Assembly: GCA_035221665.1 (NCBI GenBank)
Contig: CM069163.1
Span: forward strand, 22,072,001 to 22,136,000
Direction of reading: 5' to 3'
Length of the DNA: 64,000 bases
Source: Okamejei kenojei
Taxonomy: Eukaryota
In this document: piece by piece, positions 39,818 through 44,453 of the stretch
How positions within the stretch are numbered: position 1 is the stretch's first letter
Layout: every line of letters begins with the position of its first letter
Program-made: the position numbers and the translations under genes
Notes under the pieces: generated by a model
The model's input: only the letters and a program-made list of their open reading frames with translations
What the model was told of the DNA's origin: nothing
Database searches by the model: none

Positions 39818-42423
39818 CTGTAAAAAGGACAAATTCATTCAGTACATGTGACAATAATAACCAACATCAATAAATCAATACCAATACTAATAACAGCATG
39901 ACGTCCACAAAATAAAGCTCAGAGGGTTGATGTGAATTGTGATTTCACAGTACATTTGATTGTGAAGAGGCATCTATAATCCGATATCTCGGTTTATTTC
40001 AGAAATAGAACTGCCAGCCGAGAGAACGCAATTGAGACAATTTCTGTTTTCTATCTTTAAGTCTCAATCTTCTAGGCCAGGGTACACCCAGATGCTCTTT
40101 TGAATGCAATTAGGGCGAACCGAGTCCACCACTCTCTATGCACAAAATAAAGAATCAATAGGCTTAAAATAATTAATTACAGGAATCCAAAAAACTTGGG
40201 ATACGAGTGAAGCACATTTTGGGATGGGACAGGCATAGTATTTAGTAAATAAATGAGACAACTGATCCATATGGTAAATGTCTCCGATGATCAAGAATCA
40301 ACAGGTCAAGTACTTCCATGTATTTCCACATACGATAGAAGTTTGTCGGTAAATTAGGAATTTAAATTGCCCCAGATTGTAGGCAAATGGCATGGGGTGG
40401 TGGTTAATGGAAAAGCAAGATGAAAAATTGGCAGTGTAGATGAATACTTGAGGATGAGTGTGGACATGGTGGAAGCAGGACATGCTGCTTTGTTACAAGA
40501 CCGACTTTTCAAGCACATTAAGGGAGAATATCTTTAAATGCCGTTTAGTATTGTTTACATACATACAAACAATTAAACAAGCAAGAGGAACCCCCTCTCT
40601 TTTGTGGCATTCCCCTTTTATTCAGACAACTCCAGTCACCAAATGACAAAATACAAGTGAATGTCAATATCAAATTAAGAGAGAGAGAGCAGAAGGAACA
40701 GCAAGCTAATATTTTAAACTTAAATAGTGGCAATTATAAGGGTATGAAACCAAAGGTGAATCTGTAATTTAGGTCAAGGGATCAGTCAACTGAGATGCAG
40801 TTTTTCAGAATACAGTTTGATCAATTTTCTGGCACCCTCAGTTCCAGAGCCTTTCTGGACTAACAGAGGTCACGTATAAATGAAATACACCCCTGGCCGG
40901 CTAATGACACCCCTCCCGTGTTTATAAAGCACCACTGAGTGCCAGGAACTTAAATGAAATGAATATAAAACGTAAACGGAGTGTGAATGGAATGACCTGC
41001 TGACCCATCCCTGGCTCACACCATCTCCACGGCTGTTTAGAGCTCCGGCTTCAGACGCCACTCACGACTTGCAAGGTGCACCAGCAAGCCCTTCTTCACC
41101 CACCAAAAGGACACAAAGTGCTGGAGTAAGTCAACGGGTCAGGATCTGTGGAGAACACAGATAGGCGACATCAGGACCCTTCCTTCGACCAATTCATTCA
41201 CCTGAGTTACTCAAGCACTTTGTGTTTCAGTGTACATTAGTCAGACATTGGTCAGCTCTCAGCTGGAGTACTGCGTGCTGTTCTGGTCACGTGGGTGTAA
41301 GTAGGTTGTGGTAGTACTGGAGAGGGTGGAGAACAGATTCACCAGGATTTTACCTGGAAAGGGGCAGTTCATTTTTCAGCTGATCTGTTCTCCGTGCAGT
41401 AGAGGAGGTTAAGTGGGGACATGATTGGGGTATATTGGAGGATGGCAGGGTAGATTACAAGAAACATTTCTCCATATCATAAGTAGATAAAACTAGAAGA
41501 CATAGGTCTAGGGTAAGAGGTAGAGATTTAGAGGGAGAATGAAGGGGTCTTGACATAAGCAAGTTGGGGAGAGTGGCCTATTTCTATGCTGCACAATTCT
41601 GTTTCGAAAATAAAGCTAGCTGTGGGAATTCCTATTTAAAAACAACTCTTATTGAAAGCAATTCCAGGAAACTGTTAGTGAAAACAAAGTTAATAGATGA
41701 GTGGAGCAGGTATTATGCATTAGGTGTAAGAGTCATTGAACTATATAGCACAGAAACAGGCCCTTCAGCCCATCTTGTTGACCAAGTTGGCATACCAGGC
41801 TTGTTCCTTTTGACTGCATTTGGCCCACAGCACTCCAACACTAATTTTCTGTTGCAGTTAAGTCCCAACACTAATTTTCTGTTGCATTCACACATTGACC
41901 TCCATATGTAGCAATGTCACAAAACCTACCTTCAGCGCCTTTGATGGGGGGGGGGGGGATTAATATGCGGGTTTGCATCGCTTGTTGGAGAGGGATTTCC
42001 TCGGGCTGCTAGTCGAAGAAAAATCGATCGGACTTCCGTTCCCGTTATTTTAAAAATGTTTAAAAACGCTGGACAATTTAATAGTTGGATGAAAGTAAAA
42101 TGTGACTTTGAATGCCCTCAATGCCTACAATGTGACAGATCGTAATATCAGGACAAACAAAAGGTAAGTCGTTTATTTCACATATAATCTTGCTTCTTGG
42201 GGTGGTTTTAATCTAATTTTACAACGCAAAAATGTTATTTGGGGCCCATACGAACCGGCAGTGTCTTTGCCTGCCGATATAGGGTTAAAATTCACGGCAA
42301 CGGCAAAGTTCCAATCGATCGCATTCCAGAAACACCCACCTCCAAGATGATTTTAATTCTCATTTTATTTGGACAATCATGTCATAAGAGGATCTAAATC
42401 GTCTATATTTTGTGTTGTCTATC

Positions 42424-42602
42424 CATACCTGCCAACTTGTGAGAATGAAAAATCGGAATCCTATTAGTCTGACGTCAGTGAGGGCGGGGCACGTGACGTC
42501 AGTGAGGGGCGGGGCACGTGACGTCAGTAAGGGGCAGGGTACGTGACGTCAGTGAGGGGCGGGGTACGTGACGTCAGTGAGGGCGGGAAAGTGACGTCAG
42601 GG

Positions 42603-42641
<39 letters not shown>

Positions 42642-42898
42642 AGTGACGCCGAACGCCACCGTGGCGGGGCGGGGTTATGTGGCTGCGTGCTGACGTACAC
42701 CCGTGCGTGCCCCCATAAGCGGCGCAGGCGCGGTGCGCTCTCTCGCTGTCTCCTCGCCGCCGCCGCCGCCATGGGTCGCTTCCATCCCAATTCCGAATTC
42801 CAATTTTTTTCGGAATATTGAGGAAAAAAATCGGAATTCGGAATTGGGATGGAAAAATCGGAAGAATTCCGCCCAAATCGGAATGGTTGGCAGGTATG
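42424..42898. mobile_element. MITE with 13-bp TIR and 6-bp TSD
   Basis: CATACCTGCCAAC ... GTTGGCAGGTATG; tctatc on both sides; subterminal AAATCGGAA repeats. Confidence 0.9.
42470..42650 (+). promoter_or_regulatory. 24-25-bp tandem array of CRE + GC box + E-box/HRE cores
   Basis: TGACGTCA at 42470, 42494, 42519, 42544, 42569, 42592, mostly separated by GGGCGGG; function not demonstrated. Confidence 0.55.
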
Positions 42899-43379
42899 TC
42901 TATCCATAATCAATATTTTTATACTAAATATCCACAACAGTTTTAGCCACATGTATTGTGCAAAAAATAATAATTTTGATTATATTGAGAGTGGATGTTT
43001 CTAGATTAATTTATGGGAATTAAACATTAAATTCCTTCCATCTGGCATACAAGTTCATGACAGTGAGTTTTAAAAATGTTATATTGTGAATTCTTGTGTG
43101 AATGGGATTAGTTTGTTATTTGGATACTTAGGCTATTAAAAATATATCCTTTTCTTAAGAAATGGATATATGTTTAGATCTAGTAATTGAATTTAGATGA
43201 ATTTAACTGATTAGATGAATTTAATTGATGAAACGGATGAATATTAATTTTTTGTTGGGTATTTACTATTTGTTTTAGCGTTTAACTTTATCATTTCTAC
43301 CTTTTTTCTAAAACTGCAAATAATAACTTGTTTCTGTTAATGCGGTTCAGTGTTTTTTTTTCCTTTACATTTTAAACAG

Positions 43380-43724
43380 ATGTCTCCAAAGAAGAAATGC
43401 AAAATTGTCAATCCAATTGCCCAGCAAAAGAGACTGATTTAGACAGCATTCGCAGAGATTACCCGAATCTGGACTACTCCAAATGTGATGAACTGCAGGA
43501 CATTCTTAATGGGAAAGTAATGGGCAGAAAGGCATGTCATGCGTGGTTTGAAGAGCAAAAACAAGTAGTTTACAATGCCAAAATTGAAAAGTTGAGGAAA
43601 AACAAGGTGTACAGAGTTTCTTATTGGTTGCAATCTGAGGAGTATGAGGATGCTACGGATTAGAAATATGCCAATGTACCAGCTAGCAACTGATCTTCTC
43701 CATAAAGACTTGGTCTATTGCTAG
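43380..43724 (+). pseudogene. Disrupted terminal exon of a transposon-borne gene, Tudor/Spin-like C-terminus
   Basis: Polypyrimidine tract + aacAG at 43378-79; frame VSKEEMQNC...GRKACHAWFEE...VYNAKIEK...YRVSYW...; stop/frameshift near 43661, then MPMYQLATDLLHKDLVYC-stop. Confidence 0.55.
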
Positions 43725-44453
43725 AAATTGTAATTTATTTACCTATCTGTTACGGACTTATATAATACAATAATATTAAAGCTCTGATCTTGAGAATTTC
43801 ACATTTTTGAATTTTCAAGGCAGTCTGGGTGTTTATTACTATTTCCGTCACACCGGTCAATTTTGTAATTAGCTACAATTAGGTAACTAACCGATTATAT
43901 GCTTTAATTTCATTCAAGTAAGATGCTTTATATTAGTTTCAGAATGTATAATAACTGAAAAATTCATTCAGTTCTCTTAATTTTTAAGAGTTATGGGCTT
44001 TTGACTGTCCTCGATCACAGCTTTTGTGTTAAGTCAATGGAAAAGCAATAGGGAACAAGAATCTAATTTCCGAGTATGAAAATGGCCATAACTTTTTTTA
44101 ATACTGAAGATATGAAAGTGAATTAGTTGTCAAATTAAACTTGTTTTTATGCTTTATCTGATGGGATAAATTGCAGACTTGATTTTTAAAATTTTGTAAC
44201 ATTGCTACCACATGTCCCACTTCTTACATTGTTCCAATGCCTCCCAACATAAGCTAAAAGAAGAACCCCTCATCTTTTATATATGCAGCTGTCAAAACCT
44301 AAGATCTCATCTCACAAAACTTTTTTTTACCCAATCATCTCGAGCTCCTATTTTGTTCACCAGATAGCATAAGACTTGACTACCCACCCAACCCTCTTTA
44401 CAACAACTCATTTTCCCGAGAGGCGAGTGAAAGCAGACCATCAATCTCCTTAC

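Follow-up and report, generated by a model that had tools for sequence, protein, structure and literature searches.

The element in the NUP214 intron

The window, the whole 64-kb stretch of Okamejei kenojei DNA that was analyzed, holds a NUP214 intron that contains a miniature transposon (MITE) of 475 bp. NUP214 lies on the minus strand, so the promoter cassette described in a first-pass annotation of this DNA is indeed antisense to it; the closest named homologues of this NUP214 are from one ray and four sharks. The intron border at 39833 was defined by tblastn and that at ∼44450 was read by eye from the splice donor. The perfect terminal inverted repeats (TIRs) reported for the element are present and measure 13 bp (42424 through 42436 and 42886 through 42898). 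They are bordered by a 6-bp duplication, TCTATC (42418 through 42423 and 42899 through 42904), which the annotation did not mention. Coordinates below are those of the window.

39834 to 44450, minus strand: NUP214 intron containing the MITE and an outer repeat
41908 to 44208, no strand: outer, older multicopy repeat that received the MITE insertion (defined from empty-site joints); its inverted ends measure 17 bp
42418 to 42423, plus strand: left 6-bp target-site duplication (TSD)
42424 to 42461, plus strand: native left end of the hAT element, comprising the 13-bp TIR and a single subterminal AAATCGGAA motif (42450)
42460 to 42599, plus strand: CRE/E-box/GC-box tandem array with a 24- to 25-bp unit, from the rps13 upstream promoter
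42600 to 42640, plus strand: poly-G run, not found in the host promoter and of variable length among copies
42641 to 42770, plus strand: rps13 proximal promoter and 5′ UTR
42771 to 42821, plus strand: rps13 start codons (MGR), frame shifted by an 8-bp deletion and reading into the transposon end; 16 codons
42780 to 42854, no strand: 32-bp inverted repeat
42804 to 42898, plus strand: native right end (transposase 5′ side of the partner element), with three AAATCGGAA motifs and the 13-bp TIR
42899 to 42904, plus strand: right 6-bp TSD

The outer repeat around the window copy also surrounds or borders several other family members (L134, L221, L237, L301, and L307), which reflects either preferential targeting or great abundance of this repeat.

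All six perfect CREs (TGACGTCA) attributed to the element were recovered, at 42470, 42494, 42519, 42544, 42569, and 42592 (spacing of 24, 25, 25, 25, and 23 bp). They fall within 130 bp; the whole 64-kb window has 10 occurrences of TGACGTCA against 0.45 expected, with a maximum of 3 in 100 shuffles. The E-box/CLEAR-like sequence CACGTGAC at 42490 and 42515 and TACGTG at 42540 and 42565 are likewise as annotated. The alternation of CREs with GC boxes holds in large part: GGGCGGG follows five of the six CREs, but the third unit reads GGGCAGG. The array is a single 24- to 25-bp tandem unit repeated 5.8 times, and its motifs are hence not independent events; the suggestion that it might be a minisatellite, offered in the annotation as an alternative, was right, and its length varies among copies. 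The G run is also present, although its length of ∼40 is peculiar to the window copy, the median being 12 among the 63 runs measured (6 to 37).

Between the G run and the start codon, residues 42641 through 42770 contain GC boxes, an A/T-rich CATAAG (42714 through 42719), a pyrimidine tract (∼42738 through 42755), and (GCC)n. By analogy with the ribosomal-protein promoters described in PMC554972, the pyrimidine tract may be a TCT-type start that serves as an initiator. The Kozak context GCCGCCGCCATGG begins at 42762 and places its ATG at 42771, in agreement with the annotation. The 16-codon open reading frame reported there exists, but it is just the rps13 start broken by the 8-bp deletion and running into the element end; the peptide is likely nonfunctional. 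A deep contig of sequencing runs X1 and X2 matches the window from 42736 through 42773 (pyrimidine tract, (GCC)n, and ATG) and then continues into what we take to be the start of profilin; the match is probably a low-complexity likeness.

Origin of the interior

Using the family model PF08069, an exon of the host gene rps13 was located at C18:50686931, with a matching ATG context 1.4 kb upstream (G000:C18:50685542). This locus has the same array, leader, pyrimidine tract, and Kozak ATG, followed by a GT intron; no TIR or element end was found nearby. Host exons 1 through 3 translate as MGRMHAPGKG...PSQI (RPS13) with GT-AG borders, and contigs of runs X1 and X2 contain the junction of exons 1 and 2 in spliced form. 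The window copy and host rps13 agree at 123 of 136 aligned array bases and at 130 of 134 leader bases (42641 through 42779). Most copies read MGRMHA after the ATG, the point at which the window copy has its 8-bp deletion. The interior is the rps13 promoter, 5′ UTR, and exon-1 start instead of the purpose-built signal cassette that had been proposed. The annotation was correct that this is a MITE with a portable promoter; what it missed is the origin, a host housekeeping promoter with the start of its first exon.

An older subfamily, of which 15 copies were examined, retains all of rps13 exon 1 together with the intron-1 donor, and the capture therefore took place at the DNA level. Cargo of this kind comprises the upstream array, the intron-1 donor of these 15 copies, and, in a sister subfamily described below, ∼2.5 kb of a CACNG intron. 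A retro-origin was ruled out by the upstream and intron sequence in the cargo. The genome also has a separate processed rps13 copy (L078, G000:C22:11742000), whose start codon is mutated and whose 5′ end lies inside the pyrimidine tract.

The host array has three perfect CREs in five units, and copies have 3 to 10, with one copy (L235, G000:C6:19737763) grown to 22. Comparison across copies, which the annotation had called for, gives 3 to 7 CREs in 44 simple copies and 5 to 22 in the 15 that keep the intron donor. With 3 in the host and 3 to 22 in the copies, the array is a minisatellite of host origin, and its length shifts in the copies. ATF/CREB, AP1, and Sp1 sites are described as ordinary in some vertebrate ribosomal-protein promoters (PMC554972), and the table entry for mammalian rpS13 in that source lists Sp1, AP1, and YY1 sites and an AUG in exon 1, which fits our reading of the cargo.

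Taken together, the sequence comparisons make it very probable that the element is a nonautonomous hAT transposon that encloses a near-identical rps13 promoter and first-exon start, captured and then multiplied. The rps13 piece was likely acquired by template switching during the repair of an internally deleted element, and a related transposase would then have raised the rps13-carrying element to several hundred copies. Junctions of four of the 15 donor-keeping copies (L067, L069, L243, and L247) have both the left-end base of the partner and the host base, a combination that speaks for transfer from the host gene to the element; junction microhomologies span 1 to 3 bases and are ambiguous.

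The assembly contains many small indels. The rps13 gene occurs twice within 60 to 75 kb on C18 (L075 and L076) with many indels, and another donor locus, on C10, is likewise found twice within 60 to 75 kb (L296 and L300, G000:C10), again with many indels and beside an N gap. These doubled loci are possibly uncollapsed haplotypes or an assembly artefact.

Transposase partner and family history

Five long elements have both or one of their ends in common with the MITE and encode a multiexon transposase, which is read in the opposite direction to the captured promoter. One of them (L307, G000:C6:65257710) is 4463 bp long, has a 6-bp TSD, and shares the ends of the MITE; L303 and L306 are 98 to 99% identical to it, and L303 through L306 are located on G000:C30. 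The window copy matches the autonomous partner at 36 of 38 bases of the left end and at 92 of 95 bases of the right end. The AAATCGGAA repeats in these ends would be the sites of transposase binding. No uninterrupted transposase frame was found in the five partner copies examined; all have stops or frameshifts, some of which are perhaps assembly errors.

The partner is assigned to hAT on the basis of its homologues and motifs. No hAT Pfam match was obtained for the two partner fragments scanned; a homologue 91 to 94% identical to the partner (P0004) matches PF05699, the hAT dimerization domain, above cut-off. With the repetitive middle left out, the best homologue is a named Diadema setosum (sea urchin) protein at 91 to 94% identity, and one unnamed protein is 95% identical to the latter; the best named fish match to the partner transposase reaches 55%. 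An arrival of the partner by horizontal transfer, perhaps recent, is likely from these identities and forms part of the proposed history.

The 13-bp TIRs and the dimerization domain of the homologue are features of the hAT superfamily, for which the usual TSD is 8 bp; 6 bp dominates in this family. Among 79 distinct full-length copies, 68 have a TSD of 6 bp, three of 7 bp, one of 9 bp, and seven have none. Moving the ends in by one base gives an 8-bp TSD in 2 of the 30 top copies, versus 27 of 30 with 6 bp, and the 8-bp alternative was rejected. A 6-bp TSD is the known exception that defines hAT6 (PMC12730594), and it is found here both in the 68 of 79 copies and in L307. The family resembles the hAT6 group (Kapitonov and Jurka 2007, as described in PMC12730594) in transposase homology and 6-bp TSDs, a putative placement made by these two features.

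The partner also bears on where the array came from. If the array were native to the transposon, as a transposase promoter or binding repeats, rps13 would have gained it by insertion, and the finding that copies have as many perfect units as the host or more is compatible with this. All three partner copies tested, however, lack CREs and GC boxes (0 of each), part of the cargo consists of rps13 codons and the intron donor, and the host rps13 locus has no element ends. We consider this origin highly improbable. The same counts remove the annotation's suggestion that the array is a set of transposase-binding repeats; a role as transposase promoter was rejected on the lack of CREs and GC boxes in the partner and on the cassette pointing the other way.

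A DNA search returned 1089 candidates, of which 40 were scored and nearly all proved full length. Pattern searches found at least 689 exact left ends of one variant and at least 44 of another. The exact core-promoter 20-mer occurs 446 times, up to two of these being host copies, which leaves at least 444 element copies. Leaders diverge from their subfamily majority by 0.4 to 1.4%, and judging from this low divergence the family is young. Other copies do carry the array, as the annotation required of a mobile cassette: the first 30 copies on contig 1, taken in order of position, all have at least two perfect CREs. Thirteen of these are simple, 6 have an inserted repeat, and 11 have other cargo, and CREs are kept even where other sequence was replaced. 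The Kozak ATG is retained in 17 of the 19 simple or inserted-repeat copies; it is present in all of the 30 best BLAST copies, a biased sample.

The subfamilies can be ordered. Host-like copies with the intron donor (21 pattern matches beside two host-like loci) precede copies whose left end is altered to match the AAATCGGAA motif of the right end; these are followed by copies that have the hairpin and lack the donor and then by copies with an inserted repeat and further cargo. In the window copy, the left arm of the 32-bp repeat duplicates, in inverted orientation, right-end sequence of the element itself, which results in a strong hairpin (z −7.6). In the younger subfamily, this arm replaced the remainder of rps13 exon 1 and the intron donor, and it is the commonest subfamily that has the duplication in place of the splice donor. 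Among the 44 older-type left ends, 17 have the array and 27 do not; with the 689 newer ends added, array-bearing copies outnumber array-less copies by ∼25:1, the counts of ends being lower bounds. In the array-less members L221, L211, and L248, a LINE 3′ end that includes its poly(A) is inserted close to the right end and appears to have moved along with them. A sister nonautonomous family of ∼870 bp (L181 and L318, G000:C1) has the same 13-bp TIR with different subterminal and internal sequence.

Sister subfamilies carry 5′ pieces of three further loci. The first is a CACNG2/3-type exon 1 with ∼2.5 kb of intron, for which 54 matches comprise 53 copies and one host locus on C22 (L216, G000:C22:22938752); in L081 and 52 others, the CACNG2/3-type (stargazin family) first coding exon is complete, retains its splice donor, and runs antisense to the rps13 array. 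The second is a 5′ piece from C6, with 20 matches (19 copies and one host locus). The third, derived from C10, is a CCAAT/GC promoter-like piece that includes a splice donor; it has 27 matches, two of them lacking element ends. Two earlier pattern searches for the C10 donor had returned only element copies; the possibility that this piece is the transposon's own promoter was excluded by the locus without element ends. A Pfam scan of 141 of 228 candidate frames in the C10 donor region found a candidate LHX3/4-type LIM exon ∼29 kb downstream on the same strand, and a scan of 143 of 239 candidate frames in the C6 donor region found a candidate GGACT frame ∼33 kb downstream, also on the same strand. 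The rps13 array and the C10 piece are fused in some copies, an arrangement that implies switching between family members.

What drove the ∼25:1 lead can be viewed in two ways. The cargo may be a neutral passenger, the success of the family being due to improved ends, namely the AAATCGGAA-matching left end and the duplicated right-end repeats. These changes mark the most numerous subfamily, and the donor-keeping copies, in which the duplication is absent, are few (21) and comparable in number to the array-less lineage. Against a neutral cargo, all four of the captured pieces derive from promoter-like or first-exon regions, and at least two CREs persist in 30 of 30 position-ordered copies even with the rest replaced. 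On balance we lean slightly toward the neutral passenger, as improved ends account for the lead at least as well as the cargo does. It is compatible with capture and multiplication of the rps13 piece as set out above and competes solely with the reading in which an open promoter shields the copies.

That reading holds that, in a horizontally acquired hAT element, the rps13 promoter would keep copies open and under-methylated, and this shield would have driven the ∼25-fold lead and would have placed copies close to other active promoters, leading to serial capture of the first exons of these, with hundreds of live promoters as the outcome, some of them firing into genes such as NUP214. We regard this full chain as unlikely.

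Promoter activity and known capture systems

In the annotation, the cassette was called signal-responsive, a label for which the motif names are the sole basis. A mobile promoter that is active, responds to cAMP or stress, and alters the wiring of host genes, in NUP214 by way of an antisense RNA, would be consistent with a real promoter whose core elements are intact in at least 444 copies, and more perfect CREs are usual in copies than the three of the host. Two runs that resemble RNA data also have contigs with element-specific sequence; these contigs show neither strand nor start, however, and intronic read-through accounts for them. Furthermore, the splice donor is gone from the commonest subfamily, the source of the cargo, rps13, is a housekeeping gene, and the DNA around sampled copies is ordinary (GC 0.43; CpG o/e 0.42; island-like in 3 of 44).

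The decay of CpG dinucleotides is mild in the captured leader. CpG transitions there amount to 24/2745 versus 15/3456 over 80 copies (odds ratio 2.0), compared with 11/662 versus 14/4619 over three copies of the partner body (odds ratio 5.6); this contrast is borderline (p ∼0.05), has three control copies, counts shared mutations repeatedly, and is diluted by assembly errors. By group, decay is not significant in the three rps13 groups (p 0.09 to 0.34), and p is 0.04 in the array-less group; no excess of CpG transitions was detected in the native right end, the CACNG cargo, or the C10 intron cargo. Weighing these points, we consider a signal-responsive promoter that rewires host genes unlikely. 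The chances that some copies initiate transcription appear evenly balanced, and it is rather doubtful that the window copy would do so strongly enough to affect NUP214.

The rps13 family has the features of a multicopy Pack-TIR: non-TE host sequence between the ends of a TIR element, a parental copy without element ends (G000:C18:50685542), distinct TSDs (72 of 79 distinct copies with 6 to 9 bp), and capture at the DNA level. It is a multicopy Pack-TIR amplified far beyond the animal cases of a published survey, which describes four multicopy cases among 100 animal reference genomes (Tan et al. 2021, PMC8277862). One of these is Pack-hAT-N8_XT, in which hAT ends surround a ∼300-bp GC-rich host 5′ piece (CAPSL 5′ UTR; PMC8277862). 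Distinct TSDs, a donor on another chromosome, and short junction microhomology are common to both (PMC8277862). Pack-hAT-N8_XT has three copies, whereas the rps13 family has hundreds (PMC8277862, whose supplements may give larger numbers). The rps13 family further differs from the animal Pack-TIRs described in that source in having an entire core promoter, cargo from four donors, and a transposase-coding partner with matching ends (PMC8277862). A literature search, with Repbase, Dfam, and the supplements of PMC8277862 outside its scope, turned up neither this family nor a capture of the rps13 promoter.

Capture of host sequence by animal cut-and-paste elements had been reported as rare and almost always single-copy, and promoter amplification on such a scale in vertebrates was previously known from Helitrons. 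In this family the donor can be named, a transposase partner is at hand, the subfamilies are ordered, and young promoter copies (3 to 22 CREs) lie by the hundreds in varied surroundings. These copies form a natural reporter series with which to ask if a CpG-island promoter of the housekeeping type remains active and free of methylation once moved, and whether captured promoters aid the spread of a transposon.

Rice Pack-MULEs are similar in being TIR elements with GC-rich gene pieces, many of them transcribed and lowly methylated (PMC5861414). They belong to the plant Mutator superfamily and their expression has been shown, whereas the rps13 family is known from its sequence (PMC5861414). HelibatN3 and other promoter-capturing bat Helitrons have brought a promoter, together with the 5′ UTR, first exon, and part of an intron, to around a thousand copies, and they share with the rps13 family a preference for the 5′ ends of genes and sequential capture (PMC4224331). 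Helitrons are rolling-circle elements without TIRs or TSDs, in contrast to the rps13 family, a cut-and-paste hAT family of a cartilaginous fish in which both TIRs and TSDs are present (PMC4224331).
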